From Mycobacteriales bacterium (GTDB taxonomy: Bacteria > Actinomycetota > Actinomycetes > Mycobacteriales > SCTD01): a stretch of 58,640 nt of DNA. Positions within the stretch are counted from its first letter, which is position 1; each line of letters starts with the position of its first letter. Below, piece by piece: positions 2,455-26,676 of this stretch. A program made the translations under genes and the position numbers. The stretch lies in assembly GCA_038256525.1 (NCBI GenBank), contig JBBSKF010000004.1:1-58640 (forward strand), given 5' to 3'. The notes beneath the pieces are model-generated. The model was not told the origin of the DNA and did not search any database. It saw only the letters and a program-made list of their open reading frames with translations.

Positions 2455-2463
2455 ACTTCATCC

Positions 2464-10583: not shown

Positions 10584-11585
10584 CTACTCTGCCGTCAGGC
10601 GTCCGTCGACGAGCTGTTCGCCGACGAGGTTGCCGAGCGGGTCGAACCGGCAGTACTCGAACTCCTTGCGGAACTCCATGTGCAGGTCCGAGAGGCCGGT
10701 CCGGTTCTTCTCGACGCTCAGGACCGCCACCTGCCGGAACCGCTCGGCACTGCGAGGGTCATACGCCAGGTGGTGCTTGGCGACGATGTCGTGCTTCTCG
10801 TTGAAGAGCAGGATCACGTCGGCCTCGTAGGCCAGCGCCGAGGATCCGCGCAGCTCGTGCACCCGCAGGCGGTGGCCGGGCGCGATCCCCGCCTGGGTGG
10901 CGGCCACGATCGCGACGACCGGCACCTGCGCCTCGATCGCCAGGTCCTTCAGCGCCTCAACCACCAGCGTGACGCGCTCGTCCTCCCCCAGACTGGAAGC
11001 GACGCTGACCTTCTGCAGGTAGTCGACCACCACGACCGGTGACCGGCCGGCCGAAACCGCCTCCAGCACAAGCTCGCGAATGACCTCCGCGGTCGTATTC
11101 CGGGTGCTGGACGCGTGCACAGACAATCTCTTGCCGTATCTCCGCAGCGCCCCCTGCGCAACGATCATCCCCGGAACCGGCCCCAGGACTCCGCTGAGCC
11201 CGTCGTCCTCCCGCCCGGGCGCAGACTCCTCCAGCCGCGCCCGCAACTGCCGCAGTGTCGGCGCGTTGGCCCCGGCGCTGTCGTACGCCTCCTGCACCAG
11301 CAGGCGCTCGAGAAGGTTGGCCTCGTCCAGCTCGTAGGAGAAGCAGGCGGCATCGCCCCCCGCCGCGGCCACATGACGCAGCAGCTGGAGCGCAAACGTC
11401 GTCTTGCCCAGCCCTTGTGGTCCGCCCACGAGAATGAGCTCGCCTGCGCGGATGCCTCCTGACAAGATCTCGTCGAGCGGTGTGAAGCCGGTGGGCCAGA
11501 CCCTCGCCACGGCGCTCTGTCCGCCGAAGACGCGCTTCTCGGCCATCGTGAAAACGTCGGTCAGGGGCGTGAGGCGTTCCGGCAT
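10584..11585 (-). CDS. RecA-superfamily ATPase, DnaB C-terminal/KaiC-like single domain
   Basis: ATG 11585 (MPERLTPL). Walker A GGPQGLGKTTFALQLL, Walker B VVVVDYLQKV, and VEKNRTG resembling the DnaB C-terminal motif. No N-terminal helicase domain. Confidence 0.7.
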   Translation of the reverse strand: MPERLTPLTDVFTMAEKRVFGGQSAVARVWPTGFTPLDEILSGGIRAGELILVGGPQGLGKTTFALQLLRHVAAAGGDAACFSYELDEANLLERLLVQEAYDSAGANAPTLRQLRARLEESAPGREDDGLSGVLGPVPGMIVAQGALRRYGKRLSVHASSTRNTTAEVIRELVLEAVSAGRSPVVVVDYLQKVSVASSLGEDERVTLVVEALKDLAIEAQVPVVAIVAATQAGIAPGHRLRVHELRGSSALAYEADVILLFNEKHDIVAKHHLAYDPRSAERFRQVAVLSVEKNRTGLSDLHMEFRKEFEYCRFDPLGNLVGEQLVDGRLTAE

Positions 11586-11656
11586 GGGCCCATCGAAGCA
11601 CCCGAGCATGCCCCGCGGCGTTTGTCCGACGTCGGCGGGTGTGCGACGGTCGCCCG

Positions 11657-13339
11657 ATGAGGGCGGCGTACGACGACCTGCGCCAGTCGGCAAGCAAGGT
11701 CGGGCTCGTCGCCCGCGGGGTCCTCCTGGTGCTGTGCGCCTCGCTCGCCGCAGCCAAGACGACGCCGGGCGACCTGCTCTGGCTGACAGCCCTGGTGCCG
11801 GTCGCCGTCCTGGCGGCCCTGCCCAAGCGCAGCCGGTTGGGAACCCTCATAGCGCTGGCTCTGGAGAGCAGCGCGTGCGGGATCGCCGTCCTCGGCACCG
11901 GCTCGGAGAGCAGCGTCTTCCTGCCCTACCTGCTTGCTCCCGCCTTCTGCGGCGCCCTTCTGGTCGGGGTCAAGGGCGCTGTGGTCCCGCCCGGTGCGGC
12001 CGCGTTCACCCTGCTGCTCGGCCGGGCCGTCCGCAGCGACGTCACCCCGCTGCGGGACTTCACCGCCGAAACCGCCCTGTGGGTGCTGCTCAGTGCCTTC
12101 GTCGGCCTCGTCACCGCCTGGGTCAGCCACCTGGCCGTGACTGCCGCCCAGACGGACCCGCAGGCCGCGCAGAAGGCGGCGTACGACCTGCTGAGCCGGC
12201 TGCGCACCGTCGCCCGGCGGCTGCCCGGCACCCTGGATCCGACCTCGACAGCGGAGGCCCTCCTGCGATCGGTGCGCGACCTGGCGCCGTACAGCGAAGG
12301 CGCCGTGTTGGTGCGCTCCTCAGGCTCCCGGCTGGTGCCGCTGGCCCGGGCCGGTGCGGAGCGGCCGGAGTGGGACCTGGCGCTGTCCGGCGACAGCTCC
12401 GTCGCCGAGGCCTGGGCCACCCAGGAGCCGCAGGTCCGTGATCGGCGGCTGCGCCGCACCGAGGGTGCCCCTCCCGCCGGGTCGTCGCTCGTCGTTCCCC
12501 TGGCTCTGGGCCTGCGCACCCTCGGCCTGCTCGTGCTCGAGAGCGATCGGCCGCGGGTGTGGTCAGCGGCGACGGCCGCAGAGATCGCCGGCCAGGCCGG
12601 TGACGTCGCGCTGCAGCTCGAGAGCGGGCTGCTTTTTGACGAGGTACGCACCCTCGCCACGATGGAGGAACGCAACCGGGTCGCGCGAGAGATCCACGAC
12701 GGGATCGCGCAAGAACTGGTGTTCCTGGGTTACGCGCTGGACAACCTTGTCGTTGAGGCAGGTGGGCCGCAGCCGCGCCTGGAAGGCCAGCTGCGAGGGT
12801 TGCGTGACGAGGTCACCCGCCTGGTCAGCGAGCTGCGCCTGTCGCTGTTCGACCTGCGCTCAGACGTCGACACCAACGCCGGGCTGGGGACGGCGCTCAG
12901 CGACTACGTCCGGACCGTCGGCACCCAGACCGGGCTGACCGTGCACCTGAGTCTCACCGAATCGGCCATCCGGCTGCCGTCCTCCATCGAGGTCGAGCTG
13001 CTCCGGATCGCGCAGGAAGCCGTGGCCAACGTGCGCAAGCATGCGCGGGCGAGCAACCTCTGGGTCACCTGCGTCGTGGAGCCACCGCAGGCATCGATCA
13101 CCGTCGAGGACGACGGCATCGGAATGAGCGGTGAGACGCGGTCCGGCAGCTACGGCCTCACCATCATGCGCGAACGCGCGGACCGGTTACAGGCGCGGCT
13201 TCGAGTGCAGCCGACCAAGTCTGGCGGGACCCGGGTCGAGGTGCTCCTTGGTAGCGTCGGAAGTCTCCCCAGGCTCGATGTCGGGGACGAGGAACGGGGG
13301 GCCGCACGCGATGCCGACGACGGTGCTGCTCGTCGATGA
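11657..13339 (+). CDS. Membrane sensor histidine kinase (TM region + GAF-like + HisKA_3 + HATPase_c)
   Basis: N-terminal TM helices. H-box ERNRVAREIHDGIAQEL (HisKA_3, NarX/DesK class). C-terminal DDGIGM ATPase motif. Divergent from the KaiC-like gene across a ~71 bp spacer. Confidence 0.85.
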   Translation: MRAAYDDLRQSASKVGLVARGVLLVLCASLAAAKTTPGDLLWLTALVPVAVLAALPKRSRLGTLIALALESSACGIAVLGTGSESSVFLPYLLAPAFCGALLVGVKGAVVPPGAAAFTLLLGRAVRSDVTPLRDFTAETALWVLLSAFVGLVTAWVSHLAVTAAQTDPQAAQKAAYDLLSRLRTVARRLPGTLDPTSTAEALLRSVRDLAPYSEGAVLVRSSGSRLVPLARAGAERPEWDLALSGDSSVAEAWATQEPQVRDRRLRRTEGAPPAGSSLVVPLALGLRTLGLLVLESDRPRVWSAATAAEIAGQAGDVALQLESGLLFDEVRTLATMEERNRVAREIHDGIAQELVFLGYALDNLVVEAGGPQPRLEGQLRGLRDEVTRLVSELRLSLFDLRSDVDTNAGLGTALSDYVRTVGTQTGLTVHLSLTESAIRLPSSIEVELLRIAQEAVANVRKHARASNLWVTCVVEPPQASITVEDDGIGMSGETRSGSYGLTIMRERADRLQARLRVQPTKSGGTRVEVLLGSVGSLPRLDVGDEERGAARDADDGAARR

Positions 13340-13958
13340 CCACGATCTCATCCGCCAGGGGCTGCGCCGCAGCTTCGAACTCGATTCCGCCTTCGAGGTG
13401 GTCGGCGAGGCGGGCTCGGTAGCGGCGGCCCTGGACCTGGCTGACTCCCTCACGCCGGATGTGGTCGTCATGGACATCCGGTTGCCGGACGGGAGCGGCA
13501 TCGACGCCACAGCCACGCTCCGCGGCCGGCACGCCACTATGGGTATCGTCGTCCTGACGATGTACGCAGGGGACGACCACCTCATGGGCGCGCTGGAAGC
13601 CGGCGCTTCGGCCTTCGTGCCCAAGAACGCGCCGGCAGCAGAGGTGTTGGCCGCGGCCAAGCATGCCGCCGCCTCACCGTCGGCCTTCGCGGCAGCCGAC
13701 CTCGCCGGGGCTATGCGCCGCCGGATGGCGACGGACCGGATCAAGCTGACCGACCGGGAGATGCAAGTCCTGACGCTGCTGGCCGACGGTCTCAACGTGG
13801 CCGCGTTGGCGAAGGCGCTGTTCATCAGCGAATCGACGGCCAAAAGCCACATCGCCAAGATCTACGAGAAGCTCGGGGCGGCCAATCGCACGCAGGCGCT
13901 GATGACCGCCCTGCGGCTGGGTGTGCTGCCAGGAAGCGCTGAGACGCCCACGGTCTGA
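13311..13958 (+). CDS. Response regulator, NarL/LuxR family
   Basis: ATG 13311 (MPTTVLLVDDHDLIRQGL). REC domain with VVVMDIRLPDGSG. C-terminal LuxR HTH (LTDREMQVLTLLADGLNVAALAKALFISESTAKSHI). Overlaps the kinase 3' end by 29 nt. Confidence 0.9.
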   Translation: MPTTVLLVDDHDLIRQGLRRSFELDSAFEVVGEAGSVAAALDLADSLTPDVVVMDIRLPDGSGIDATATLRGRHATMGIVVLTMYAGDDHLMGALEAGASAFVPKNAPAAEVLAAAKHAAASPSAFAAADLAGAMRRRMATDRIKLTDREMQVLTLLADGLNVAALAKALFISESTAKSHIAKIYEKLGAANRTQALMTALRLGVLPGSAETPTV

Positions 13959-14145: not shown

Positions 14146-14352
14146 ATGCTCGCTTCGATCCGCAAGCACTTGGTCACGCAGAAGAACAACGACGAGGGCG
14201 CGTCGGCGGTCGAGTACGGCCTGCTCGTCGCCGCCATCGCTGCCATCATCATCCTGCTCGTCTTCGCGCTTGGCGGTTTCGTCAAGGACGCCTTCCAGAC
14301 AACTTGTGATGCGTTTGACGATAACTCTACCTCTACAGCTGTTTGTCCATAA
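14146..14352 (+). CDS. flp: Flp/Fap family type IVb (Tad) prepilin 1
   Basis: ATG 14146 after GGGAGGA. Leader MLASIRKHLVTQKNNDEG, then the ASAVEYGLLVAAIAAIIILLV Flp processing motif and hydrophobic core. C-terminus is C-x12-C. Confidence 0.85.
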   Translation: MLASIRKHLVTQKNNDEGASAVEYGLLVAAIAAIIILLVFALGGFVKDAFQTTCDAFDDNSTSTAVCP

Positions 14353-14378
14353 GTCGTCGCTCGCGGAGAACGGTTTCT

Positions 14379-14567
14379 ATGGGTATGGCTGAAGCCCGCG
14401 ACCTAGGCGCCTCAGCCGTCGAGTATAGTCTTCTCGTCACCGGCATAGCGGCGATCGTCATTCTCGTGGTTTTTTCACTTGGGGGCTTCGTTGCGGACAT
14501 GTTTCGGGATACCTGCCGAACGATAGACATAGCGACCACAATCACGGGCGCGAGTTGCGGCCCATAG
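14379..14567 (+). CDS. flp: Flp/Fap family prepilin 2
   Basis: MGMAEARDLG followed by ASAVEYSLLVTGIAAIVILVV. C-terminus is C-x13-C. Start ATG 14379 (alternative 14385). Confidence 0.75.
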   Translation: MGMAEARDLGASAVEYSLLVTGIAAIVILVVFSLGGFVADMFRDTCRTIDIATTITGASCGP

Positions 14568-14588
14568 CGGCGGGCTAGGATGGGATGG

Positions 14589-14630
14589 GGGACCGAGACC
14601 TCAAAAGGTCTTGGTCCCTCTTCTTGTTTG
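14589..14630 (+). terminator. Intrinsic terminator/attenuator after the flp genes
   Basis: gggaccgagacc-tcaaaa-ggtcttggtccc: a 12-bp stem with one G-U pair, followed by the T-rich tract tcttcttgtttg. Confidence 0.6.
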
Positions 14631-14688
14631 CCCTAGGCGCGCCGCGGCCCTTCGACGCCTCGCGGGAAGCAAACCTTTGACCAATGTG

Positions 14689-16572
14689 ATGACGGGCCCA
14701 ACTCGATCAACTGCGCCGGAGCGGCAGCGGGCACAATACGAGCTTCCGCGGTCTATCGCCCGAGTTGCGGTCATTGTAGGCCTTCTCATGATAGCCCTCG
14801 ACCTAAATGCGGGCGCAGTGACTCTGGCTCTGGGCCTTCTCTCTCTGCTCCTTCCTGTTACGACTCGCATCTCCGGAGTGATGCTCGCGTTTCCGGTGCT
14901 ATTCGGAATCGTGACATGTGTGTTGACTATCACGTCCCTGCTCGGTGTATTTGTGAGTGCTCGCGTATTCTTTGCAATTCTCTTGGTCACTTTCGCGATT
15001 CTCTGCGAACTGCGCTCGCCAGTAATGCCACGAACGCTATTCTCCACGTGTGACCTATGGGCGCTAGCTACGGCTGGCCTAATTTTTTTGGTTTTTTACT
15101 GGCCCTTCATCGGCAAGTCGACCGGTCAAACCCTAGCCTTGCTTTCGCAAACTACGGATGCGGGCACTCATCTATCAATAGCTCGGGCGGTGATGCGCGA
15201 AGGCGGCTATGTGACGCTTGTGCCAGGCGCAAGCGAGTCCCTGCTCGGAGGTTCTCAAGGCTATCCCCCGGGGCTGTCCGGGAACCTCGGGACGCTGATG
15301 CAGATGTTCGCGGGGCCAGACCCCACGATCTCCAATTTTGTCGGTGCATCTACGCCGCTTCTTATTGGCTCCTACGCCATGCTTTCATGGTTGGCGACAT
15401 GGCTAGCGCTGCATCTTGTGGGTGCCGTTACTGGCCGATTAACTACACTCTCAGCCCTTAGCACAGCCACAGCTAGCGGGCTGTCCTTCACCCTCGGCTA
15501 CGCCGTGCTGTTGATTCGAGGCGCATCGTATGCGCAAATAGCTGCGACGGCACTCACCCTAGCCTTTCTTACTGTTGTTGTCATGAACCGTGCCGACGCA
15601 AGGCTTAGTGTAACGTTAGCTTTATCAGCATTGTCGGTAGGAGTAGCACATTCTTGGTATCTGCTAACTCCGCTGCTCGCAATACCTTGGATTGTGCATC
15701 TAAGTAGAAACCGCTACCGACGGAAAGCACGACTGGCCCTTCTTACCGCAATTCTCCCATTCCTTCTCTTTCCTCTGATACAGGGGCCTGACCCGATCAA
15801 GCAGGTTGGCATGGCAGGGTATGCAGCCGTGCCGTCAGTGACTGGACTTCTGATTGTCTTAGCCTTGGCAACGTGGTCGATGTACTTTCTTATCGCGAGA
15901 CAGAAGGGGGCCCGATTCGACCGATTATTGTTAGTGTCGTCACTAATTTCCGCTTTAGTATTGTTGATTGGTGTCGGTCTGCTACAGGTCCGTACCGGCG
16001 GCCAGGTTTCGTACTATTCTGCGAAGCTCTTCTATAGCTTCTTAGTTTTTGTTGCAGTGGCGGGGTCTGCGGCCACCGGCATACTTTTTCGCCACCGATC
16101 CATTAGTTACTTGCAACTGCATCCCGCCATGCGTCTCGGCGCGGCGTGCCTTTCCCTCTTTCCACTCGCCGGTGCGGCCTCCGGCATCTTGACGATGCCG
16201 TCCATGATTGCCCCGTTCCTTCGAGGCGAGTCGGCGACGCAAAATAGTAGCCTCTTGCAGGCAGCTTTTGACGCGCATCCTCGTGGGATCCCGCAGGACA
16301 GCGACGTATGGATCGTTGATGGTTGTGGCCGAGGGGCCAACAACATCTCAAACAAGTGGCTGTACGATCTCTCCCTGGGTTGGAACTCGGATCGCGAACG
16401 AGCGATTGTGGAGTTTATCAATCGGCGAAACGACGACTGGAGTCCGGTTCTTCGTCGTGCGTCAGACCCGAAGGTTCGAGCGATCACGTTGTATGTTGGT
16501 AAACCGTGCAGAGGCGACGGAATCTCCGAGATTCTCAACGAGCCCAAGGTGCGGGTTGTGAACGTGTCCTGA
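14689..16572 (+). CDS. Large polytopic membrane protein, candidate GT-C-type glycosyltransferase
   Basis: ~627 aa with many TM segments along most of its length and a ~110-aa C-terminal soluble domain. Start ATG 14689 (GTG 14686 possible), chosen downstream of the terminator hairpin. The family assignment is inferred from architecture and context only. Confidence 0.55.
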   Translation: MTGPTRSTAPERQRAQYELPRSIARVAVIVGLLMIALDLNAGAVTLALGLLSLLLPVTTRISGVMLAFPVLFGIVTCVLTITSLLGVFVSARVFFAILLVTFAILCELRSPVMPRTLFSTCDLWALATAGLIFLVFYWPFIGKSTGQTLALLSQTTDAGTHLSIARAVMREGGYVTLVPGASESLLGGSQGYPPGLSGNLGTLMQMFAGPDPTISNFVGASTPLLIGSYAMLSWLATWLALHLVGAVTGRLTTLSALSTATASGLSFTLGYAVLLIRGASYAQIAATALTLAFLTVVVMNRADARLSVTLALSALSVGVAHSWYLLTPLLAIPWIVHLSRNRYRRKARLALLTAILPFLLFPLIQGPDPIKQVGMAGYAAVPSVTGLLIVLALATWSMYFLIARQKGARFDRLLLVSSLISALVLLIGVGLLQVRTGGQVSYYSAKLFYSFLVFVAVAGSAATGILFRHRSISYLQLHPAMRLGAACLSLFPLAGAASGILTMPSMIAPFLRGESATQNSSLLQAAFDAHPRGIPQDSDVWIVDGCGRGANNISNKWLYDLSLGWNSDRERAIVEFINRRNDDWSPVLRRASDPKVRAITLYVGKPCRGDGISEILNEPKVRVVNVS

Positions 16573-16885
16573 TCGCTGTGACCGTATCTTGTCACCGCTC
16601 ACTGATAGTTGGCCCTACTCTCGATGCCGGGCGTGCCGACCGGTCCGGGTCGCCAGAACGGCTGCCGGCAAGACATGCTCAGGCAGTTCGACCTGGACTT
16701 CGAATCTGCGCTTCGATTCGCGGCCGACTTCGAGCTCAGTCCCCACGGACGGCCTTCCCTCCTCGGCGACATGCCGGCTCCCTCTCGAGTTTGAAGTGCC
16801 GTCTCCGGCTCAGGCGCGAGCAGGATCGTGCGATCCTCCACTGGGCGGCAGAGGGCCGCGAAGCGGTGCCGGTAAGGAGACGCTC

Positions 16886-17503
16886 GTGACTGAGGACCAC
16901 GGCTACGCGCAGCGCCTGCAACGACTGGAGTCGGTCTGGTGGAAACGCTCGCTCCATGTCCAGGGACCGTATCGATTCAATGTCAGGCGCCTCTGTCAGG
17001 GTCGTGTCCTCGACGTCGGGTGCGGGGTGGGCCGCAACCTGTCCCACCTGAGCGGGCGCGGTGTCGGCGTCGACCACAACGCCACGGCCGTGTCGCTCGC
17101 GCGAAAGCGTAGCCTGACGGCATTCACCCCCGAAGAGTTCGGCAAGCGTGCTCTGCTGGGTTCATTCGACACCTTGCTGGTTGCTCATGTGCTCGAGCAC
17201 CTCGATGCGGTCGACGGCGAGGCCCTGCTGCGTACCTACCTGCCCTACCTGCGAACTGGCGGCCGAGTCGTCCTGATCACGCCCCAGGAGCGGGGCTGGC
17301 ACAGCGACGAAACGCACGTCCGGTGGATCGGGCCAGCGGAGCTGCGGAGTGTCGGTAAGCGGCTCTTGCTCCAGGAGCATCGCCTCCTGTCTTTCCCGTT
17401 CCCCCAATGGATGGGAAGATTCTTCACTTACAACGAGTTCATTTTCGTCGCAACAGCGCTGCCAAGCGGAACACCGGAGCCCGCCTCTAACGTTCGTGGC
17501 TGA
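16886..17503 (+). CDS. Class I SAM-dependent methyltransferase
   Basis: GTG 16886 after AAGGAGA. Motif I VLDVGCGVGRNL, plus FDTLLVAHVLEHL. Confidence 0.75.
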   Translation: MTEDHGYAQRLQRLESVWWKRSLHVQGPYRFNVRRLCQGRVLDVGCGVGRNLSHLSGRGVGVDHNATAVSLARKRSLTAFTPEEFGKRALLGSFDTLLVAHVLEHLDAVDGEALLRTYLPYLRTGGRVVLITPQERGWHSDETHVRWIGPAELRSVGKRLLLQEHRLLSFPFPQWMGRFFTYNEFIFVATALPSGTPEPASNVRG

Positions 17504-18773
17504 CTTTCCGGAGCGAGGGCGGCGCCTCCCCGCCGGCGCATTACCAGTGGGTGCCGGCCTTTCGATCCTCGGCGTCACGACGTTCATCTACCTGGCCCTT
17601 GCTGGGCGCGCACTCGGACCGGAGCAGTTTGGCATTTTCGCCGCCTTCTGGATGCTCTTGTACACGGTTGGTCCCGGAACCTTTCTTCCCCTAGAGCAAG
17701 AACTCGCGCGGACGGTGTCGACGCAGCAGGCGGTTGCAGTCGGGTCCCGGGACGTCACCCGTCAGGCCGGCATCGTTGCCCTCTGGATGACGCTCGCCCT
17801 CGTGCTTCTGATGACCGCGGCGGGCCCCTTCGTCGCGCGACAGCTCCTCGGGGGCGCGACCGGGCTCCTCCTTGCTCTCCAGGCTGGCGTAGCTGCCATG
17901 GCTGTCTCCTATTTGGCGAGAGGGCTCCTGGCCGGACTGCAGTCCTGGGGTCACTACGGTTCGCAACTCGCTCTTGATGGGGCTCTACGCCTGCTCGCCG
18001 TGATTCTGCTTATTGGGAAGGGCAGCGAGGCACCGACCTCGTACGCCGTCCCGCTTGTCGCCGCGCTGGCCATCTCGTCGGCAGTCACAGTGTTCGGGCC
18101 CCTGCGCAGGCTCAAGCGCGGTCCGCGAACCAATTGGCGAGACCTCGCGGGCGCCCTGGGTTGGCTGCTTATCGGCTCGCTCGCTGGACTGTTCCTGCTC
18201 AATGCGGCTCCGCTCGCGGCCCAGTACCTAGCTGACGCTGGGGAGCGCGCCGCCGCTGGCAACTTCGTCGCCGCGCTCGTGGTGGCGCGGGTGCCGCTTT
18301 TCCTGTTCGCCGCCGTGCAGGCGGTCCTGCTACCGGCATTAGCCGGTTACGTCGCTGTCGGACGGAGAGGACCATTTGTGAGGGCCCTGTTCGGCCTCAG
18401 CTTCGGTGTGGCCGCCCTCGGGATCCTCATGGTGTCGTTGGCCGCGCTGGGAGGCCTGGAGCTGCTTAAGCTCGTCTTTGGGGATGCGTACCGGACCGAC
18501 CGGCTGGACCTGGTGTTGCTCACAGCGTCGACGGCAGGATTCATGCTGACTACTGTTCTGAGCCAGGCGTTGATCGCGCTTAGGGGTTTCGGTTCAGCTG
18601 CAGCAGGACCGGTCGTAGGTGTCGTGATCTTCGTTGCGGGATGCGTCGCGTCCGACGAGCCCCTGTCCCGGCGCGTGTCAATAGCCCTGACAGTCGCCGT
18701 GTTGGGATCGGGACTGGTCCTCGGCCTGCTACTCCTGCGCCAGGTAAGGCGCTGGGGGCTGCGAGATGCCTGA
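17496..18773 (+). CDS. Polysaccharide/oligosaccharide flippase-like membrane protein (MOP/Wzx-type)
   Basis: ~425 aa with ~12 TM-like segments. GTG 17496 overlaps the methyltransferase stop. Sits between a methyltransferase and a GT2. Confidence 0.6.
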   Translation: MADFPERGRRLPAGALPVGAGLSILGVTTFIYLALAGRALGPEQFGIFAAFWMLLYTVGPGTFLPLEQELARTVSTQQAVAVGSRDVTRQAGIVALWMTLALVLLMTAAGPFVARQLLGGATGLLLALQAGVAAMAVSYLARGLLAGLQSWGHYGSQLALDGALRLLAVILLIGKGSEAPTSYAVPLVAALAISSAVTVFGPLRRLKRGPRTNWRDLAGALGWLLIGSLAGLFLLNAAPLAAQYLADAGERAAAGNFVAALVVARVPLFLFAAVQAVLLPALAGYVAVGRRGPFVRALFGLSFGVAALGILMVSLAALGGLELLKLVFGDAYRTDRLDLVLLTASTAGFMLTTVLSQALIALRGFGSAAAGPVVGVVIFVAGCVASDEPLSRRVSIALTVAVLGSGLVLGLLLLRQVRRWGLRDA

Positions 18774-19854
18774 CGCCCGCCCATTCTCTGTGAGCGCGAT
18801 CGTTCTGGCCTACGGGGCGGAACCCTGGTTGCGAGAGTGCATAAGGGCTCTGCTCGCATCGGCGCACGTGGATGTGGAGGTTCTTCTCGTCGACAACGGC
18901 TGCACGAGCATCGACCTGACGGTGCTCAGCTCGCTAGAGCGAGTTCGGATGCTGCGGCCCAGCAAGAACCTGGGCTACTCCCTTGGCTGCAACTTGGCGG
19001 CATCAAGGGCAGCAGGCGAGGTGTTCGTCTTCGTGAACTCAGACTGCATCGTGACGCCTCTTGCGCTGGCCACGCTCGCGCGTGCCGTGTGCGAACAGGA
19101 GGGTCTGGTCACTGCGTCTGTTCGCCTGGGCAGTCAACCGGACCTACTGAATTCTTCGGGAAACCCTGTCCACTTCCTTGGCTTCTCGTGGGCCGGTTGT
19201 CACGGTGAACCGGCGCCGAAGACTGGGGCGATCAGAGAAGTCACCAGCGTGAGTGGTGCCTGCTTCGGGGTTTCCCGCGAAGTATGGATGCAGCTAGGCG
19301 GTTTCGCCGAGGGCTACTTCGCCTATCACGAGGACGTCGAGCTGAGCCTTCGGTGCTGGCTCTCGGGACGTACGGTCCGGTACGTCCCAGAGGCGATCGT
19401 TCATCATCACTACGAGTTCGCACGTAACCCAGAGAAGATGTACCTGTTGGAACGCAACCGGCTGATCACCTGGCTGAGTCTTCTGGAGCTCAGGACCTTG
19501 GTCCTGCTTGCACCGATGATGTTGTTCGCCGAGGTCGGGGTCTCGCTCGTGGCTGCCCGTCAAGGCTGGCTGAGACACAAGGCCCGCGGCTGGCTGTGGC
19601 TGATGGGCAACGCCGGCTGGATCCGAGCGCGGAGACGGGAGATGCTCCGGCAGCGTGTGGTGTCCGACCGGGTCCTGTCGCGGCACCTCTCTGGCACGCT
19701 CAACCCGGGTGGTACCGCGATGCCGCCCGCGGCCGCGCTGGCGAACGCGCCCCTCGCGGCCTATTGGTGGATCATCCGACGGCTATTGCGAGCTACTCCT
19801 CCGGCCCAGGTGGGTGAGATTCGCGGTGGTTCTGCGCCTCCAGCCGGAGGATAG
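18766..19854 (+). CDS. Glycosyltransferase family 2
   Basis: FSVSAIVLAYGAEPWL...VEVLLVDNGCT...VFVNSDCIV, typical GT2 (GT-A) N-terminal motifs. Confidence 0.85.
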   Translation: MPDARPFSVSAIVLAYGAEPWLRECIRALLASAHVDVEVLLVDNGCTSIDLTVLSSLERVRMLRPSKNLGYSLGCNLAASRAAGEVFVFVNSDCIVTPLALATLARAVCEQEGLVTASVRLGSQPDLLNSSGNPVHFLGFSWAGCHGEPAPKTGAIREVTSVSGACFGVSREVWMQLGGFAEGYFAYHEDVELSLRCWLSGRTVRYVPEAIVHHHYEFARNPEKMYLLERNRLITWLSLLELRTLVLLAPMMLFAEVGVSLVAARQGWLRHKARGWLWLMGNAGWIRARRREMLRQRVVSDRVLSRHLSGTLNPGGTAMPPAAALANAPLAAYWWIIRRLLRATPPAQVGEIRGGSAPPAGG

Positions 19855-20161
19855 CCACCTCCTCGGCTAGGGCTCGGGTCTCGTCCTCCAGCCGGCTCAC
19901 CTCCCAGCTGAGCTGGACGCAGACGATCAGCAGGACGAGCGCGGCGACGAAAAACAGAAGGTTCGACGGGGTCTGCACGCCCGTCAGCCGGGCGCCGAAG
20001 GACAGGACCCCCGGGAAGACGGCGATGACAAGCACCGCCAGACTGACGAACAGCCAGAGAATCGCGTACTTCTCCCTAAGCTGATGGCGCCGGAGTAGAT
20101 CGATTATGATGAATAGGGTGAATCCTGCGGCAAACAAGGGCAGGATACGCGCGCTGGTCAT
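19793..20161 (-). CDS. DUF2304-type small membrane protein
   Basis: 122 aa with 3-4 TM segments and LRRHQLREKYAILWLFVSLAVL. ATGA overlap with the upstream GT2, the usual partner arrangement. Confidence 0.7.
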   Translation of the reverse strand: MTSARILPLFAAGFTLFIIIDLLRRHQLREKYAILWLFVSLAVLVIAVFPGVLSFGARLTGVQTPSNLLFFVAALVLLIVCVQLSWEVSRLEDETRALAEEVAILRLEAQNHRESHPPGPEE

Positions 20162-20913
20162 ACCGGCTCGCGAGCTGATACGACCCGCTCGCGCTCGTCC
20201 TCGGGCCAGCGTCGGATGAAGGCCAGCGACAGGGCTATGGAGGCCCGGAGCAGGTAGAGGGTGGCTCGGAGCGAGCCCTGCGAGGAGGACCCGTGCAGGC
20301 GGGGGTTCATGACGACTGCGACCTGCTCGACGCGAAGTCCCGCCCTGGACGCAATGAGCAGCGCCTCAACCGTGTCGCCCAGGTACTCAACGGGGTAGTG
20401 GCGGGCGAACAGCGTCATGGCTCGCCGGTCACACGCGCGGAAGCCTGATGTCACGTCGGATAGAGGCGTCCCCACCGCGCGCGACAGGACCCCCGCCAGG
20501 ACGCGCATCGCTCCCCTGCGGGCGCCGCCCACTTCGAACTCGCCCTCGCCAGCAAAGCGCGCGCCAATAACGATCTCGGCCTTTTCCAGTTTGGCCAGCA
20601 GCACAGGGACGTAGGCCGGATCGTGTTGGCCGTCGGCATCGACCTGGACCGCCGCGTCATAGCCGTTGCGAAGGGCGTACTTGAACCCCGCCCTCATGGC
20701 CCCGCCGACGCCGAGGTTGTACGGCAGGGTCAGCACCAGCGCGCCCGCGCTTGCTGCAGCGGCGCCAGTCCCGTCGGTGCTCCCGTCGTCAACGACGAGG
20801 ACGTCGACGCCTGGTGCCTCCTGAAGCAGTGCCGCCACCACTTGCCCAACAGACTTGCGCTCGTTGAGCGCTGGCACGATTGCGACTGCCCTAGCAACGC
20901 CGGGATGCGCCAT
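20158..20913 (-). CDS. GT2 glycosyltransferase, polyprenyl-phosphate (DPM1/GtrB-like catalytic domain, soluble)
   Basis: ATG 20913 (MAHPGVARAVAIVPALNE). Contains VLVVDDGSTDGT and VQVDADGQHDP. Confidence 0.85.
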   Translation of the reverse strand: MAHPGVARAVAIVPALNERKSVGQVVAALLQEAPGVDVLVVDDGSTDGTGAAAASAGALVLTLPYNLGVGGAMRAGFKYALRNGYDAAVQVDADGQHDPAYVPVLLAKLEKAEIVIGARFAGEGEFEVGGARRGAMRVLAGVLSRAVGTPLSDVTSGFRACDRRAMTLFARHYPVEYLGDTVEALLIASRAGLRVEQVAVVMNPRLHGSSSQGSLRATLYLLRASIALSLAFIRRWPEDERERVVSAREPV

Positions 20914-21178: not shown

Positions 21179-23471
21179 TCACAACAGCGCCCCCAGCACG
21201 TTGGAGAAGTCGTCGGTCCACGGCCGCTGCCCGGTCCGGCGCTCCTGCAGGTCCTGCCAACGCCCATCGGCATGCAGACTGCTCAGCCGCTCGCCGACCT
21301 GGCTGAGAACGACCCACGTCGATGCGGATTTGCCCACCGCAGCATCGCTGAGCTGATCAACCTGGATGAGTCCCTGCAACTCAACGTCGTCGGCGATCTC
21401 GGCCAGCACCGGCGCCAGGTCGAGGTAGCGGTTGCTGATGTGTAAGACGAGCAGGCCGTCCGGGCGCAGCCGCGAGAGGTAGAGCTCGACTGCCTCACGG
21501 GTCAGCAGATGGACGGGGATCGCGTCGGAGCTGAACGCGTCGAGCACGAGGAGATCGAAACGTCCCGGCGGCTCGTCGGCCAGCGACAGCCGGCCGTCCC
21601 CGAGCACCACCTCCACTCGCGCTGCGCTGTCCGACAGGTAGGTGAACAGCTTCGGGTCCCGGGCGATGTCCACGTTCGCTTGGTCGATCTCGAAGAACGT
21701 GATCGCCTGGTCCGGCTGGCCGTAGGCCGCCAGAGCGCCGCTCCCCAGCCCGACGAAGCCGAGCTCGGCCCCGGCCAGCCGCGCGGACTGGTCGGCGAGC
21801 AGCTGCCCGATCGGTCCGGTGCGGTGGTAGTAGCTGCGCGGCTCGCGCTGCCTGCCCGGCCGCCGATCCTGCGTGCCGTGCACCGTGCTCCCGTTCGTGA
21901 GCGTGTGCACCCCGCCGGACGCCGACACCTGTGGACGCCGAAGAAGGTGCGGCTGGTCGCCAGGCTCCCGGTCAGCAGCAGCGGCACCACGAGCACCAGC
22001 ACCAGGCCGAAGGCCTACGGACGCGGGCTGCGCGCGCCGACGACGCCGAGCAGTCCCATCAGCAGCACCGTCAGCGCGGCCAGCGCAAGGCCGGAGTCGA
22101 GGGCCGGGACATCATCGAGCAGGGGCCAGAGCCGGTATGGCGGCGAGGCCGGCGACAACCAACAGGATGGTGCCGAGCAGCCCGTACCGCGGCTCGAACC
22201 AGGTCTTGCGCCCGCCCAGGCTCGGGACGAGCAGCACCGCGAGCGCGATGGCGATGGCGATGGCGATGGCGATGGGGTATTCGTAGAACCGATCAAAAAC
22301 GACCGGCCCGATCAGCGCGTTGACCGCCCCGCCGAGCGCGCCGCCGAGCGCCAGCAGCATGTAGAAGCCGGTCAGCCCGTCGACGCCGGGCCGGTCGGTG
22401 GCCAGGCGGGTGTGCGCGACCAGGGCCACCGCCGTGAACAGGGCGAGGTGGGTGACCACCTGGACCGCCCGCGGCAGGGGGGTCCCGATCGCCCCAAGGA
22501 CCACCGGGACGACCAGCGCGGGTAGCAGCAACGCCAGCCCGGCGGGACAGCGCCGCCGCGGACGGGCGGACAGCGCAAACGCGACGATGAACGTCACGAG
22601 GTAGAGCGAGAGCGGCACCACTACAGCAGCGGCACCGGCGCCAGATCGGTCGAGAGTACGTCGTCGTGCCCAGCATGAACGAGGACGCCAGGGCCGCCAG
22701 CGCCACCCAGCGCAGCCGCCGACCCATCGTTGGTGGGGCGGCGGCGAACACGTGCTGCGCGGGGATCTCCGCGGGCACGCATACGGCGGAGCGTCGCAGC
22801 ACGATCGCGCAGACGATGACGAGCACGACGAAGGCGACATAGCCCCGTGACCACAGCCGGAGCTGGTCGTCGAGGGCAGGCGCGGCTCGACGAGCGTGGG
22901 ATAGCTGAGCAGGGCCAGCAGGCTGCCGGTGTTGCCTGCGGCGAACAGGAAGTACGGGGCCTTGGCGCGAGGGTGCGAGGTCGCGCCGAACCAGCGCTGC
23001 AGCAGCGGACCGGCGGTGCTCAGCACGAAGAAGGGCGCCCCGACCGTGGCGGCCAGGACGACCAGCAGCCACAGGACCGGAGCCGCCCTGTCCGGAGTCT
23101 CAGGCTGACCAGGGATCCCGATCGGCAGGACGAGCAGCGGGAGCAGGACCAGGGCCGACCTGAAGGAGCGACTGCCGCCGGACCCCGAACCGGCGGATGC
23201 TGAGGTGCGTCAGGACGTAGCCGGCGAGCAGGCTGATCTGGAAGAACAGGTTGGAGGTGTTCCACACCGACGGCGAACCGCCGAACAGCGGTAGGACGAG
23301 CTTCGCGACCATCGGCTGGACGAGGAACAGCAGGCCTGCTCCGGTTAACGAGGTGCAGGAGAAGAGCACTGCCGCGGCCAGCAGGCGCGGGCGACCACCC
23401 AGTGGCGTCCCGGCGGGCTGTGGTTGGGGGGCATCGATGCTGACCGGACCGACGTGGACCGGTGTGCTCAC
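21179..23471 (-). pseudogene. Fused polytopic-membrane/spermidine-synthase-like protein, multiply frameshifted
   Basis: Recognisable segments run across at least 6 frame changes: 23100..23471, 22112..23026, 22293..23072, 22621..22854 (ends in TAG), 22015..22296, 21502..22002, and 21179..21928 (the C-terminal spermidine-synthase-like domain, LLVLDAFSSDAIPVHLLT). Confidence 0.7.
22245..22274. repeat. (GCGATG)x5 hexanucleotide tandem repeat
   Basis: Read directly. Encodes (AI)n on the minus strand inside the pseudogene. Confidence 0.9.
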
Positions 23472-23705: not shown

Positions 23706-24260
23706 ATGACGCGTATGCGCCGCGACCCCCGGCGCGCAGACGATGGAGCGGCTGCCGTCGAGTTCGCCCTGCTGTTCCCGATCTTCATCATCGTTTTGAT
23801 GGGGACAATCAGCGCAGGCACTGCCTTCAGCAAGCAGATCAACATCACGCAGGCTGCCCGCGAGACGTCCCGTTTCGGTGCAACCTTGACGTACAACGCC
23901 GCCAAGGGAGCGCCTGGGGGCACCGTCAACGACTGGTTGAACAAGGTGTCGCCAGTTGGCCAGGCAGCGGCGGGGCCACCGACGGACCCGATCGGTGGTC
24001 ACGATAATCTGTGTGTCGCCATGATCGATGTCACCGTCCCGGCCACTCCCCTTCTCAGTCGGATCCAAGACGGAGTCATTGAGGCGGGAAAGACGTGTGA
24101 CGATGTCGCACCGATTGTCGGCCTGGGACCGCGGTACGTCCAGGTCGTGGTGAAGCGAAAGGCAAACTTCTTCGCGGTCTTTCTGAACAAGGATCTGACC
24201 CTGCGATCGGCGTCCACGACGCCGTACGAGCCTGGCAACGCACCGGCTCCGACCCCGTGA
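23706..24260 (+). CDS. tadE: TadE-like pseudopilin/pilus assembly protein
   Basis: N-terminus DDGAAAVEFALLFPIFIIVLMG, the TadE signature. Confidence 0.8.
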   Translation: MTRMRRDPRRADDGAAAVEFALLFPIFIIVLMGTISAGTAFSKQINITQAARETSRFGATLTYNAAKGAPGGTVNDWLNKVSPVGQAAAGPPTDPIGGHDNLCVAMIDVTVPATPLLSRIQDGVIEAGKTCDDVAPIVGLGPRYVQVVVKRKANFFAVFLNKDLTLRSASTTPYEPGNAPAPTP

Positions 24261-26149
24261 CCAGGCCCCGAGTCATGCGGCGCCTGCGAGGCGACGATGG
24301 CGCCTACGCCATTCTCTACGGGATCACCATTGTCCTCGTCCTTGCGTTCGCTGGCATCGTGGTCGACATCAACAGTGCACGGGCTGATCGACGTCTTAAT
24401 CGCACAGCAGCTGACGCCGCGTCACTCGCTGCGGCCACGCAACTACGGTCTGACGCACCGAAACCGCGGGAAGCCTGCATAAAGGCCGTCGCCTATCTCA
24501 ACGACAACCTTCGCGGCGCGACGCTCGCAGCCACGGTTTGCGACCCGTTTCCTGTCGTTGTCAGCGCGGCCAGCCCCTGCCCACCTAGCGCTGTCATCTT
24601 CACGCCGATCGTCAGCGGCGACTTTCGCGTGACCATGACGTGGCCCGTTGTGAGCACCTCACCGCTCCTCGAGAAGCCCGATGTCCGTCCCGGCAATGCC
24701 ACCCAGACAGAGGACACTGTTTTCGATGGAACCGCTGATGATCGCTGTCAGCGTTTCGCGGTGTCGGTCGCCCAGGACCGGGACTTCCTGTTCGGACCAG
24801 TCGTCGGCGGGCCCGCCGGCACCACCACCGGCGTCAGCAGCGTTGGCCGATCTGCCCCGATGGGTGAGTCAGGAGATGCGGCGGCAGCACTCATCCTCCT
24901 GGAGCGCATGGAGTGCAATGTGCTCGAGATCCCCAACACCGGCCCCACTGTTGTCGTCCAGGGCAACATGGATCGCCCGGGCATCATTCACGCGGACAGC
25001 GACGGCAGTGGCGGCTCATGCGGTGGCTCCAAGATCTTTCACGTGCAGCAGGACAACGTGGACATCATCAAAGCTGCCCATGCAGAGACTGGGGCGACGC
25101 CCAGGGCACAAGGCATCATCAGTACGGTCGCACTGAACGGTGGCGCGAGCGCTGTCCCGGCCAACGCATATACCGGCACTCCCGGCAGGCGGGTCAAGGC
25201 AGCCGGTGACCCGCTCGCGTCCCCCCCTCTCACACTGGCGCAACAAACTCCCATTGGGCGCCCCCTGGTGACCCGTGGCCCCGTCGACAAGCGCTATCGA
25301 CTCCCCGTGAAGGACCTCATCGGCGAAGCACAGGCTGCCTGGGGTTTGTCTGCCGCGGCCGCGGCAACGGCCGGCTACACAGTGAAGCCTACCTGCAATT
25401 TGAAAGACGGCAGCTTCACAGAACAGAAAATATTTGTCGACTGCGACAAGGGTCCGGTGAATATCAATAATTTCACCTTCTCCGCTGGAGATGCCACGGT
25501 GGTTTTCAATAAGGCTGTCTCGGTGGGGTCCGGAAACTTTTTTAATATCCCGGACGCCAGAAAGGTCTTCATTCGCGGGGAGCTAGAAAGCAAAGGACCA
25601 GTAAACATCAATGCCGGGGCCGAGGCCAGTTGCGCCGCCCGCCAGGCAGCGTCTCCCCTCAGAACGGCCGCAGTTGTCCTCGACGGTGGCCTGGCGTCTT
25701 CGGCTGCTGCAGCCTACCGCTTGTGCAGCACGACTGTTGTGTTCGCCAAGTGCGCGGTGCCAACGAGTGACGCCACGCTGCCGACGACGAACGCATGCAC
25801 CGACAACATCAGAACGAATGGTGGCGCTATCGACTGGTCGGCGCCCAACACTGTCTCCGGACCCCCCACGCCGGCAGATTTTCTGAAACTGGAGGACCTA
25901 GCCTTGTGGGGGGAGGCCAGCGAGGACATGAAGATGAACGGCAACGGCGGCCTTAAGCTCAGCGGGATTTTCTTCCTACCGAACGCCGATCCCTTTGATC
26001 TCGGTGGAACCGGGAGTGTCGACGTCGTAAATTCACAGTTGATCGTGCGTCGCCTGAGCGTGAGCGGGGACTCCGAGTTCAGTTTCAAACCCAACCCCAA
26101 TGATGTCGTGAACATCCCGTTCTTCGGTGGCGTGTCGCTCATCCGCTAG
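24257..26149 (+). CDS. tadG: TadG-like pilus assembly protein (large, 630 aa)
   Basis: N-terminus GAYAILYGITIVLVLAFAGIVVDINSARADRRLNRTAADAASLAAA (TadG N-terminal domain). GTGA overlap with tadE. The long C-terminal region has the family-typical GIFFLPNA...QLIVRRLSVSGDS ending. Confidence 0.7.
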   Translation: MTRPRVMRRLRGDDGAYAILYGITIVLVLAFAGIVVDINSARADRRLNRTAADAASLAAATQLRSDAPKPREACIKAVAYLNDNLRGATLAATVCDPFPVVVSAASPCPPSAVIFTPIVSGDFRVTMTWPVVSTSPLLEKPDVRPGNATQTEDTVFDGTADDRCQRFAVSVAQDRDFLFGPVVGGPAGTTTGVSSVGRSAPMGESGDAAAALILLERMECNVLEIPNTGPTVVVQGNMDRPGIIHADSDGSGGSCGGSKIFHVQQDNVDIIKAAHAETGATPRAQGIISTVALNGGASAVPANAYTGTPGRRVKAAGDPLASPPLTLAQQTPIGRPLVTRGPVDKRYRLPVKDLIGEAQAAWGLSAAAAATAGYTVKPTCNLKDGSFTEQKIFVDCDKGPVNINNFTFSAGDATVVFNKAVSVGSGNFFNIPDARKVFIRGELESKGPVNINAGAEASCAARQAASPLRTAAVVLDGGLASSAAAAYRLCSTTVVFAKCAVPTSDATLPTTNACTDNIRTNGGAIDWSAPNTVSGPPTPADFLKLEDLALWGEASEDMKMNGNGGLKLSGIFFLPNADPFDLGGTGSVDVVNSQLIVRRLSVSGDSEFSFKPNPNDVVNIPFFGGVSLIR

Positions 26150-26415: not shown

Positions 26416-26676
26416 TCAGTGGGACCGCGACTCTTTGCTCCACGCCGACGTACCGTCCTCCGTCTTGCGTCGCAGACCACCGAAGATGACCTGGAGGATG
26501 CCGATGATCGCCACCAGCGCACCCATGATCTCCTGACCCAGGTTCTCCCCGAAGAAGATGGCCGCGAGGCCCAGGACCACCAGGGCCACTCCGAAAGCGG
26601 CGAAGATGTACGACGGCAGCGTGTTCAACGCGTGCTCCTCAGGTTGTGGATCGGTGGGGCTCACCTTCCTCGCCAT
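26416..26676 (-). CDS. Small hypothetical membrane protein (2 TM)
   Basis: 86 aa with two hydrophobic helices (YIFAAFGVALVVLGLAAIFF, GALVAIIGILQVIFGGL). No recognised family. Confidence 0.4.
   Translation of the reverse strand: MARKVSPTDPQPEEHALNTLPSYIFAAFGVALVVLGLAAIFFGENLGQEIMGALVAIIGILQVIFGGLRRKTEDGTSAWSKESRSH

Follow-up and report, generated by a model that had tools for sequence, protein, structure and literature searches.

A gene for a predicted GT-C glycosyltransferase next to flp: a candidate system for Tad pilin glycosylation in an actinobacterium

The window analysed here, a stretch of 58,640 nucleotides from a Mycobacteriales bacterium (contig JBBSKF010000004.1, positions 1 to 58,640; GC content 67.6% overall), contains a Tad pilus locus. 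Within it, two tandem flp genes encoding the pilins are followed by a hairpin, by a gene for a polytopic membrane protein with a predicted GT-C fold, and by a cassette of sugar genes; genes for TadE- and TadG-like pseudopilins come after these (Table 1). An earlier note, made from the letters of this DNA alone, had proposed that the genes between pilins and pseudopilins form a glycosylation system for the Flp pilins. The proposal was followed up by searches of protein family, structure and sequence collections, by structure prediction, and by comparison with the loci of relatives (L001 to L013).

Two tandem Flp prepilins with the G/ASAVEY processing motif are present where the earlier note had placed them, and they have in common both this motif and a hydrophobic stretch of ~30 amino acids (aa). 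Flp1, whose gene is preceded by the ribosome-binding site (RBS) GGGAGGA, is ~50 aa long when mature and ends in C-DAFDDNSTSTAV-C-P. Flp2 has the leader MGMAEARDLG/ASAVEY and the tail C-RTIDIATTITGAS-C-GP. The Cys-bracketed C-terminal loops are as claimed for both proteins. Despite its sub-threshold Pfam score, Flp2 is, to judge from its sequence, a clear paralogue of Flp1; tandem flp pairs were also found in L002, L003, L004, L006, L010 and L012. That these peptides might be precursors of glycocins or of other ribosomally synthesised and post-translationally modified peptides was considered and rejected, since they match Flp_Fap, carry the G/xxxxEY site and are encoded in a tad locus that is complete apart from a gene for the prepilin peptidase.

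Flp pilins elsewhere usually have no Cys. A search with Flp1 returned 1174 homologues, and tails were analysed in the best 120; the ending C-x(8-25)-C-x(0-4) was found in 117 of these 120 closest homologues. By this count, the Cys loop is a family trait of a large actinobacterial Flp subfamily, and not an oddity of the window genome. The N-terminal half of the pilins (GASAVEYGLLVAAIAA...FALGGFVKGAFK.TC) is almost invariant and the loop is hypervariable. Among the 112 distinct loops, which are 12-20 residues long, Ala, Ser, Thr, Asn, Asp and Gly together make up 79% of residues, Ser and Thr alone 30%, and at least one Ser or Thr is present in every loop (112 of 112). N-x-S/T sequons occur in 47 of the 112 loops, versus 43.8 in shuffled loops, and 25 of the 112 have no Asn. 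Because sequons are not enriched and these 25 loops lack Asn, O-linkage is likelier if the loop is glycosylated. N-glycosylation was considered as the main model, on account of an N-S-T sequon in Flp1 and of the structural match to STT3 described below, and was rejected on these same two grounds.

The terminator-like hairpin reported after flp2 was confirmed, with its 15-bp stem and T-rich tail, and the 60 nt of this region fold at about -38 kcal/mol. A strong hairpin stands at the same position, after flp, in L002, L007, L009, L011 and L012, which makes six loci with the window. In L003, L004 and L006 the next gene begins only 11-26 nt after flp. The hairpin fits a high expression of the pilins together with partial read-through into the accessory genes.

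The gene for the polytopic protein begins 121 nt after flp2. Its translation may begin at ATG 14689 or further downstream, as it does in a gene call of 594 aa. No match to the protein was found in Pfam or NCBIfam even at E values up to 10, and nothing meaningful among PDB sequences, profile searches included. Word-indexed searches, either with the single protein or with a 38-sequence profile, gave nothing beyond the protein itself and one relative. When 1.84 billion representative proteins were searched exhaustively with HMMER, 63 relatives came up, 37 of them with E < 1e-30, most being full length (~600 aa). By these searches the protein is a member of a small, real and unannotated protein family, called family A below. 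In an alignment of 38 full-length members, D157, H161, Y192, W323, G377, Y442, Y443, K446 and C546 are invariant, and D122 and C607 nearly so; D157 is more than 90% conserved across 54 family-A sequences.

An AlphaFold model built on the 54-sequence alignment reached a pLDDT of 91.8 and a pTM of 0.93 (AlphaFold2 with a two-sequence alignment gave a pLDDT of 41.9, and that model was not used). When the model was compared to the PDB with Foldseek, the seven best matches were all GT-C enzymes, with a probability of 1.00: two chains of AftA (8if8; E 4e-5 and 1e-4), four STT3A entries (8b6l_I and 8pn9_A among them) and ArnT (5f15). EmbB came at rank 9 (0.98), and EmbB and EmbA entries were interleaved with low-probability transporter matches. 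The topology, deduced from the DSSP helices of the AlphaFold model and the positive-inside rule, comprises ~15 transmembrane (TM) helices, with the N-terminus inside and the C-terminus outside. A loop predicted to be outside (residues 141-213) has two short helices and carries D157, H161 and Y192; the conserved acidic extracytoplasmic loop that the earlier note had named as a point to check is found here. This loop comes after the fifth TM helix, not the first, and its motif is TTDxxxH, not DxD. The sole DD/DE/ED/EE pair of the protein is at residue 582, and the conserved loop has no DDx. In the model, the invariant polar and aromatic residues all lie at the predicted outer membrane interface, and the C-terminus forms a putative extracytoplasmic alpha/beta domain of ~100 aa with the conserved Cys pair C546 and C607. 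By its predicted topology, its fold match and its conserved outer acidic residue, the 627-aa protein has the features of the GT-C superfamily, and the GT-C-like architecture ascribed to it earlier is upheld by the structure prediction and Foldseek.

More specific identities were also examined. A PglL/TfpO/WaaL-type O-oligosaccharyltransferase was ruled out, as no Wzy_C match was found in Pfam or NCBIfam at E up to 10, and the structural matches are GT-C. Identity with STT3/PglB/AglB was ruled out as well: neither a Pfam STT3 match nor a WWD motif is present, sequons are not enriched in the loops, and the likeness is at the level of fold only. No Pfam tetratricopeptide (TPR) domain was found in the protein. 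An hhalign comparison of family A with DUF6541 gave a hint only (E 0.0085, probability 4.7%), in which the TDxxxH and YP motifs align; this is too weak, and homology is not claimed. Against the 551-aa and 511-aa polytopic neighbours of relatives, hhalign gave nothing.

We compared loci that surround family-A members, picked by rank in the homologue list, or close Flp homologues (Table 1). In the genome collection, the nearest relative that bears a name is L002, a metagenome-assembled "Mycobacteriales bacterium". Counting the window, flp lies upstream of the family-A gene in 11 of 11 actinobacterial loci. It is directly adjacent in 9, the window, L001, L002, L003, L006, L007, L009 and L012 among them; L004 and L005 differ in that one or two other polytopic genes intervene. 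The adjacency of flp and the polytopic gene is thus conserved in relatives and the two are not unlinked, a point on which the earlier proposal depended. Given this recurrence, and the presence of the Cys loop in 117 of 120 pilins, neither feature is due to chance. In the eight family-A loci with enough downstream sequence (L003 and L009 end early after the GT-C gene), a GT2 gene of the PpgS/GtrB type together with DUF2304 or GtrA was always found within ~9 kb. A DUF2304 gene belongs to the cassette in 7 family-A loci; in L004 GtrA takes its place, and L012 has both.

The remainder of the cassette is less stable. In L002 it is composed of a methyltransferase, a GT4, a MurJ-like protein and a GT2, is not homologous to that of the window, and is placed after tadG; the L002 tadE and tadG orthologues (69% and 55% identical to those of the window) are directly 3' of the GT-C gene. 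The claim that glycan genes lie between pilin and pseudopilin genes therefore holds for the window and is not a conserved arrangement, the GT-C gene standing there alone in L002. From the comparison of loci, the conserved unit is flp followed by the polytopic glycosyltransferase gene, and the other cassette genes are mobile.

Three Flp loci (L010, L011 and L013) are without family A. There, flp still precedes other unannotated polytopic proteins, and genes for GT2, methyltransferase, Mannosyl_trans2, GT87-like, DUF6541 and GT4 proteins are also present. One group of the other polytopics (450-516 aa; family B) has, in alignment, an invariant D-P-D followed by W-W-H; D-P-D resembles the acidic DxD/DDx motifs of GT-C enzymes. 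The DUF6541 proteins of the relatives are ~650 aa long, and our literature search found no paper mentioning this family. Tandem family-A paralogues follow flp in L005 (3743-7664) and in L006 (890-4344), and may represent one enzyme per pilin paralogue or per sugar.

Table 1. Position of the features in the window, and gene content of the related loci. Coordinates are those of the window unless a locus is named; identities are to the proteins of the window.
Feature	Position	Strand	Size, evidence or gene order
flp1	14146-14352	+	68 aa; Pfam Flp_Fap E 8.7e-11, 41.9 bits (cut-off 32.2)
flp2	14379-14567 (ATG at 14379)	+	62 aa; Flp_Fap 4.7e-6, 26.7 bits, under cut-off
Hairpin, terminator- or attenuator-like	14587-14620	+	15-bp stem, 4-nt loop; T-rich tail TCTTCTTGTTTG after stem
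Family A, polytopic GT-C-fold protein	14689-16572	+	627 aa, ~15 TM helices; proposed pilin glycosyltransferase
Class I S-adenosylmethionine (SAM)-dependent methyltransferase	16886-17503	+	205 aa; Pfam Methyltransf_23 (E 2.7e-11)/25/11/12
Hydrophobic membrane protein (12-TM protein)	17496/17565-18773	+	402-425 aa; roughly 12 TM (crude hydropathy); no family match
GT2 (GT2a)	18766-19854	+	362 aa; Pfam Glyco_tranf_2_3 3.1e-18, Glycos_transf_2 1.3e-17
DUF2304 small membrane protein, Rv3632-like	19793-20161	-	Pfam DUF2304 E 4e-24
GT2b, polyprenyl-phosphate glycosyltransferase type (PpgS/AglJ/ArnC/GtrB-like)	20158-20913	-	Pfam Glycos_transf_2 2.2e-21
Fused MFS/spermidine-synthase-like gene, disrupted	21179-23471	-	NCBIfam MFS_SpdSyn 2.2e-14
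tadE-like	23706-24260	+	Pfam TadE 9.5e-14
tadG-like	24257-26149	+	Pfam Tad 2.2e-4, slightly under cut-off
RcpC/CpaB-like	4309-5097	+	Pfam RcpC
TadZ-like ParA ATPase	5109-6314	+	Pfam AAA_31/ParA
TadA/T2SSE ATPase	6311-7705	+	Pfam T2SSE 1.7e-65
vWA-TadB fusion	7702-9642	+	Pfam VWA_2 5.8e-14 and T2SSF
TadC	9609-10577	+	Pfam T2SSF
KaiC/DnaB_C-like ATPase	10584-11693	-	Pfam
GAF-HisKA_3 histidine kinase	11639-13339	+	Pfam
LuxR-type response regulator	about 13311-13958	+	Pfam
Uma2-family putative restriction endonuclease	875-1399	-	Pfam 9.3e-24; upstream of Tad locus
IS630 transposase	26885-28036	+	Within 26-kb segment absent from L001
M28 peptidase	28135-29775		Within 26-kb segment absent from L001
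Two HipA-like kinases	33215-34402, 34774-36447		Within 26-kb segment absent from L001
Other polytopics after flp	L004 6508-10001; L005 262-3746; L010 10713-12065; L011 4833-7657; L013 11992-13203		
L001			Flp, GT-C (39%), methyltransferase, 12-TM protein, GT2, DUF2304(-), GT2b(-), 551-aa polytopic
L002, upstream part			Full Tad core, regulators, Flp1 (84%), Flp2, GT-C (30%), directly tadE, tadG
L002, after tadG			Methyltransferase, GT4, MurJ-family protein, GT2, DUF2304(-), GT2b(-), epimerase(-)
L003			Flp, Flp, GT-C (22-nt gap), methyltransferase, DUF2304, 12-TM protein, GT2
L004			TadB, TadC, regulators, Flp, Flp, 511-aa polytopic, DUF6541, GT-C
L004, after GT-C			GtrA, acetyltransferase, aminotransferase, oxidoreductase, GT2
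L005			Flp, 516-aa polytopic, DUF6541, GT-C, GT-C, methyltransferase, 12-TM protein, GT2, DUF2304(-), GT2b(-)
L006			Response regulator, Flp, Flp, GT-C (26-nt gap), GT-C
L007			Flp, GT-C
L009			Kinase, response regulator, Flp, GT-C, methyltransferase, DUF2304, 12-TM protein
L012			Tad core, regulators, Flp, Flp, GT-C, PpgS-like GT2, DUF2304, GtrA(-), GT2

The flp and GT-C genes also stand apart by their rate of divergence and their composition. The family-A protein of the window is 30% identical to that of L002 and 39% to that of L001, and the Tad core is at 83-95% with L002. In L005, the methyltransferase, the 12-TM protein, the GT2, DUF2304 and GT2b are at 83-92% with those of the window; identity to the window falls to 31-32% for its two family-A proteins, and the Flp loop of L005 is longer and of another type. 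The GT-C gene has a GC content of 55.5% and a third-position GC content (GC3) of 0.58; GC3 is 0.63-0.74 in the flp genes, about 0.75 in the cassette and 0.83-0.87 in the Tad core. The flp1-flp2-GT-C segment as a whole (14146-16572) is compositionally foreign (GC 55-58%, GC3 0.58-0.74). No repeats that could mark the borders of a mobile element were found flanking this low-GC segment. Such a pattern of rate and composition is typical of laterally replaced surface-antigen genes.

Most parts of the cassette were identified as the earlier note had described them. The SAM methyltransferase was confirmed by Pfam; it likely starts at GTG 16886, with RBS AAGGAG, and probably acts on the glycan. Its orthologues are 3' of the GT-C gene in L001, L003, L005 and L009, and these same loci contain orthologues of the 12-TM protein. 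The latter had been labelled a Wzx-like flippase, and here every test was negative: no match was found in Pfam, NCBIfam or PDB sequences, the Polysacc_synt, MurJ and MATE families being included, and hhalign against the MurJ-family protein that occupies the corresponding place in the L002 cassette gave a probability of 0.5%. Its multi-TM character and its position in the cassette make it a candidate flippase or polymerase. GT2a is a GT2 enzyme by Pfam, as had been claimed, with a hydrophobic segment near residues 236-265 and weak NCBIfam similarity to MftF and AglG.

The last two genes, described as a pair of DUF2304 and polyprenyl-phosphate GT2, were borne out by Pfam and NCBIfam. The DUF2304 gene overlaps the 3' end of the GT2b gene, whose open reading frame (ORF) is extendable to 20985. 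NCBIfam matches of GT2b are to PpgS (6.7e-24), AglJ (3.5e-19) and ArnC (2.5e-8), all under the equivalog cut-offs; with 84.6 bits, compared to a cut-off of 370, it is not a PpgS equivalog. DUF2304 is 84-92% identical to the window's in L001, L002 and L005. The earlier statement that tadE and tadG follow the glycan genes is correct, except that they do not follow directly: a frameshifted minus-strand gene, MFS/spermidine-synthase-like, is in between. It has several frameshifts and an in-frame stop at 22112-22114, and its L001 orthologue is also split, into ORFs of 148 and 625 aa. Either this is a pseudogene or these are assembly indels, and the gene is probably outside the glycan system.

Taking fold and gene context together, we think it somewhat probable that Flp is O-glycosylated by a GT-C enzyme dependent on a polyprenyl-phosphate sugar, in analogy to the pilA-tfpW pair of Pseudomonas. 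GT2b and DUF2304 would load a sugar onto polyprenyl phosphate at the cytoplasmic side, as suggested by the homology to PpgS, AglJ and ArnC and by the precedent of PpgS-Rv3632. The lipid-linked sugar might then be extended by GT2a and methylated by the SAM methyltransferase, and the lipid-linked glycan would be flipped, for which the 12-TM protein or DUF2304/GtrA are candidates. At the outer face of the cytoplasmic membrane, the GT-C protein would transfer the glycan to Ser/Thr of the disulfide-bracketed loop of Flp, before or during assembly of the Tad pilus. Flp would be accessible to it at this stage because, as we propose, its N-terminal helix holds it at the membrane before polymerisation. 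That Flp is the acceptor is suggested by the linkage, by the features of the loop as an acceptor, and by the pilA-tfpW precedent. In a variant of this scheme, the donor of the GT-C protein would be a housekeeping one, for instance decaprenyl-phospho-arabinose, as for AftA and TfpW. The earlier note called the system dedicated to Flp; the cassette may be so, but the strong conservation of DUF2304 and GT2b, their likeness to the PpgS/Rv3632 cell-wall pair and the second sugar cluster of the window weaken this claim.

The closest parallel is TfpW. The GT-C gene tfpW, directly 3' of pilA, is needed for Ser/Thr glycosylation of Pseudomonas group IV pilins, and in P. aeruginosa Pa5196 and PA7 TfpW attaches oligomers of D-arabinofuranose to the type IVa pilin at Ser/Thr (bioRxiv 10.1101/2020.04.19.049825). 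TfpW, a polytopic GT-C of ~640 aa, has its N-terminus in the cytoplasm and a C-terminal domain outside, as predicted for the family-A protein, and its gene too is immediately downstream of that of the major pilin. The polyprenyl-monophosphate sugar donor, the small GtrA-like partner and the Ser/Thr target on the exposed pilin are all TfpW's, and are what we propose here. The differences are that the pilin here is a Flp/Tad (type IVc) pilin of ~50 aa, without the globular head of type IVa pilins; that in place of C-terminal TPR repeats the model has an alpha/beta domain with a Cys pair; that the motif is T-T-D-x-x-x-H instead of DDx; and that the host is an actinobacterium. Unlike for TfpW, no DprE1/DprE2-type arabinose genes were seen near the GT-C gene.

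TfpO/PilO and PglL are likewise directed to pilins for O-glycosylation, and tfpO is directly downstream of pilA; in P. aeruginosa group I strains, TfpO places sugar on the C-terminal Ser of the pilin, a residue that adjoins the disulfide loop. These enzymes differ by their WaaL/Wzy_C fold and by the en bloc transfer of an oligosaccharide linked to undecaprenyl pyrophosphate. The archaeal Agl system offers a similar set of parts, with a dolichyl- or polyprenyl-phosphate hexose GT2, a second GT2, a methyltransferase, a multi-TM flippase candidate and a GT-C (there AglJ, AglG, the methyltransferase AglP, the flippase AglR and the oligosaccharyltransferase AglB). Among other pili, those of the Epd type are most closely related to Tad pili (PMC6668835), and the major Epd pilin of Methanococcus maripaludis carries an N-glycan (PMC3875500). 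The difference lies in the missing STT3/AglB sequence match and WWD here, and in sequons that are not enriched. As to Tad pili themselves, a thickening of Flp pili by glycosylation was raised in a review, as speculation only (PMC6370729), and no glycosylation machinery for actinobacterial Flp/Tad pilins was found described in the literature that could be searched, in agreement with the earlier note, which knew of no such system for Tad pili of Gram-positive bacteria. What we propose as new is pilin-adjacent GT-C glycosylation in Tad pili, by a new enzyme family; the same rule is known from type IVa pili.

Among the other explanations, the one that must be weighed most carefully is that the GT-C protein and its cassette decorate a cell-wall glycopolymer, arabinogalactan- or teichoic-acid-like, the adjacency to flp being due to a general clustering of envelope genes or to local wall remodelling where the pilus passes. 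We consider it rather unlikely. It draws on the best structural match, to AftA, the priming arabinofuranosyltransferase of mycobacterial arabinogalactan (Rv3792), and on the matches to EmbA and EmbB. AftA has a similar length and also combines a GT-C part with a C-terminal outside domain, and the source lineage here is labelled Mycobacteriales. AftA nonetheless differs by its 13-14% identity, with a TM-score of ~0.4 and no detectable sequence homology, and by its context, the dprE/emb region instead of flp/tad. The PpgS-Rv3632-Rv3779 system, which modifies arabinogalactan with galactosamine in Mycobacterium and Corynebacterium (PMC9671496), fits this explanation as well, PpgS being the best family of GT2b and DUF2304 being the Rv3632 family. 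In this system, as in Gtr systems, a GT2 and a small membrane partner make a polyprenyl-phosphate sugar, which is flipped and transferred outside by a GT-C; the known acceptor is a cell-wall polysaccharide, Rv3779 is unlinked to pilin genes, and the GT-C described here is of another, unannotated family fixed next to flp. A further cluster of sugar-nucleotide and glycosyltransferase genes at 37-57 kb of the window, and the distant family member in L008, whose neighbours are polytopic and GT4-like and whose available sequence shows no flp, can also be read in terms of the cell wall. What argues against this explanation is that the GT-C gene keeps its place by flp in all 11 actinobacterial loci, the other glycan genes being moved, replaced or missing from that side; that in L003 and L006 the GT-C gene must be co-transcribed with flp, to judge from gaps of only 22-26 nt; and that the GT-C protein evolves as fast as the Flp loop, far faster than the wall-type DUF2304 and GT2b.

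Alternatively, the GT-C protein might act on another Tad component, TadE or TadG, or on exported proteins broadly, like actinobacterial Pmt. GT-C protein glycosyltransferases with a broad range of targets exist, Pmt being an example, and the structural match to STT3 is consistent with such a role. In L002 the GT-C gene has flp on one side and tadE/tadG on the other; large size and secretion are features of TadG-like proteins. Against these points, no tadE or tadG is called in the downstream sequence of most loci (L001, L004 and L012, and L003 and L009, which are shorter), flp is always upstream, and the low-complexity, Ser/Thr-rich loop with two Cys is a feature of Flp. This makes an action on TadE, TadG or exported proteins at large improbable. 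Finally, it is very improbable that the protein is a non-enzymatic, structural or assembly part of the Tad machine (a platform or wall-spanning accessory) with its fold a relic, as might be thought from its lack of a recognisable sequence family and of a classical DxD/DDx motif and from its constant place within Tad loci, since an invariant set of Asp, His, Tyr and Lys at the outer face of the membrane is what a catalytic site typically shows, a polyprenyl-phosphate sugar synthase and DUF2304 or GtrA consistently accompany the protein, and its extreme divergence is unlike that of structural Tad proteins (83-95%).

Several observations weigh against glycosylation of Flp as proposed above. The support is computational as a whole, coming from fold and gene context. 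The Foldseek TM-scores are moderate (0.34-0.43), so that family A is a divergent GT-C, and the best match, AftA, acts on a cell-wall polysaccharide and not on protein. DUF2304 and GT2b are 81-92% conserved between relatives and resemble the PpgS/Rv3632 cell-wall pair, and the second sugar cluster at 37-57 kb means that the region is rich in envelope-glycan genes. In L008, whose member is 26% identical and which comes from a low-GC organism, no flp was found in the 0.9 kb of upstream sequence; the gene sits there between another polytopic gene and a GT4-like gene. The compared loci are all variants of one type of Tad locus, and some of their shared synteny may be inherited and not selected. In the window itself, the strong hairpin stands between flp2 and the GT-C gene, no initiating phosphoglycosyltransferase was seen, and no A24-type prepilin peptidase (TadV/CpaA) was found among the scanned ORFs of its 58.6 kb. 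Last, the structure of the Caulobacter Tad pilus has no glycan density (PMC10710030).

Around the pilin genes, the window contains TadA, TadB, TadC, TadZ, RcpC, TadE and TadG. A prepilin peptidase is required for both Flp prepilins and for the pseudopilins TadE and TadG. Identity to L002 is 90% for TadZ, 95% for TadA, 83% for TadB and 92% for TadC; RcpC gave a partial match, 55% identical. The von Willebrand factor A domain at the N-terminus of TadB is found in the same fusion in L004, L010 and L012. Between tadC and flp, the order of KaiC-like ATPase, kinase and regulator is kept in L002, L004, L010, L011, L012 and L013, and this module looks like a dedicated regulation of pilin expression.

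Beyond tadG, ~26 kb of the window (26687-52700) are absent from L001, where the gene for an 86-aa membrane protein (window 26416-26676) adjoins that of an ATP-binding cassette (ABC) ATPase (window about 52723-53247). The sugar cluster of this segment comprises two DegT aminotransferases, a hexapeptide-acetyltransferase/FdtA fusion and two GT2, as well as a NUDIX protein, an HpcH aldolase, a thiamine pyrophosphate enzyme and a nucleotidyltransferase. Two ORFs, at 1666-3975 (+) and 54149-56389 (+), encode polytopic proteins paralogous over their C-terminal halves (~450 aa, 48% identical) and without Pfam match. The 54149-56389 protein is 61% identical to a 500-aa protein of L012 encoded downstream of an ABC ATPase, and both polytopics may serve as permeases for the ABC ATPase found near glycan genes.

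Tad/Flp pili are widespread organelles of adhesion, biofilm formation and DNA uptake, whose pilins are tiny and whose source of surface diversity is puzzling. The flp loop and the GT-C gene are the fast-evolving, laterally replaceable part of the locus, which would give rise to strain-specific pilus surfaces. Tentatively, we suggest a wider reading, which we regard as possible and would not yet call probable: a soil actinobacterial clade would glycosylate Flp, with the loop and the adjacent GT-C proteins (family A, family B and DUF6541) as a co-diversifying, exchangeable "pilus serotype" cassette, the first glycosylation system of Tad pilins, with new families of protein O-glycosyltransferases. 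If Flp is indeed the acceptor, a function would be given to a GT-C family of ~60 clusters without a Pfam family, and a lead to DUF6541 and to the second polytopic family. The rule of a pilin with an adjacent glycosyltransferase would then reach the type IVc pili of Gram-positive or mycolate bacteria. The variable surface would be the glycan of the pilus and not its peptide, possibly under the pressure of phages or predators, as shown for pilin glycosylation in Pseudomonas. The Cys-bracketed loop of 12-20 residues, as a compact acceptor tag, and its enzyme would also be a pair worth trying for glycoengineering in actinobacteria.

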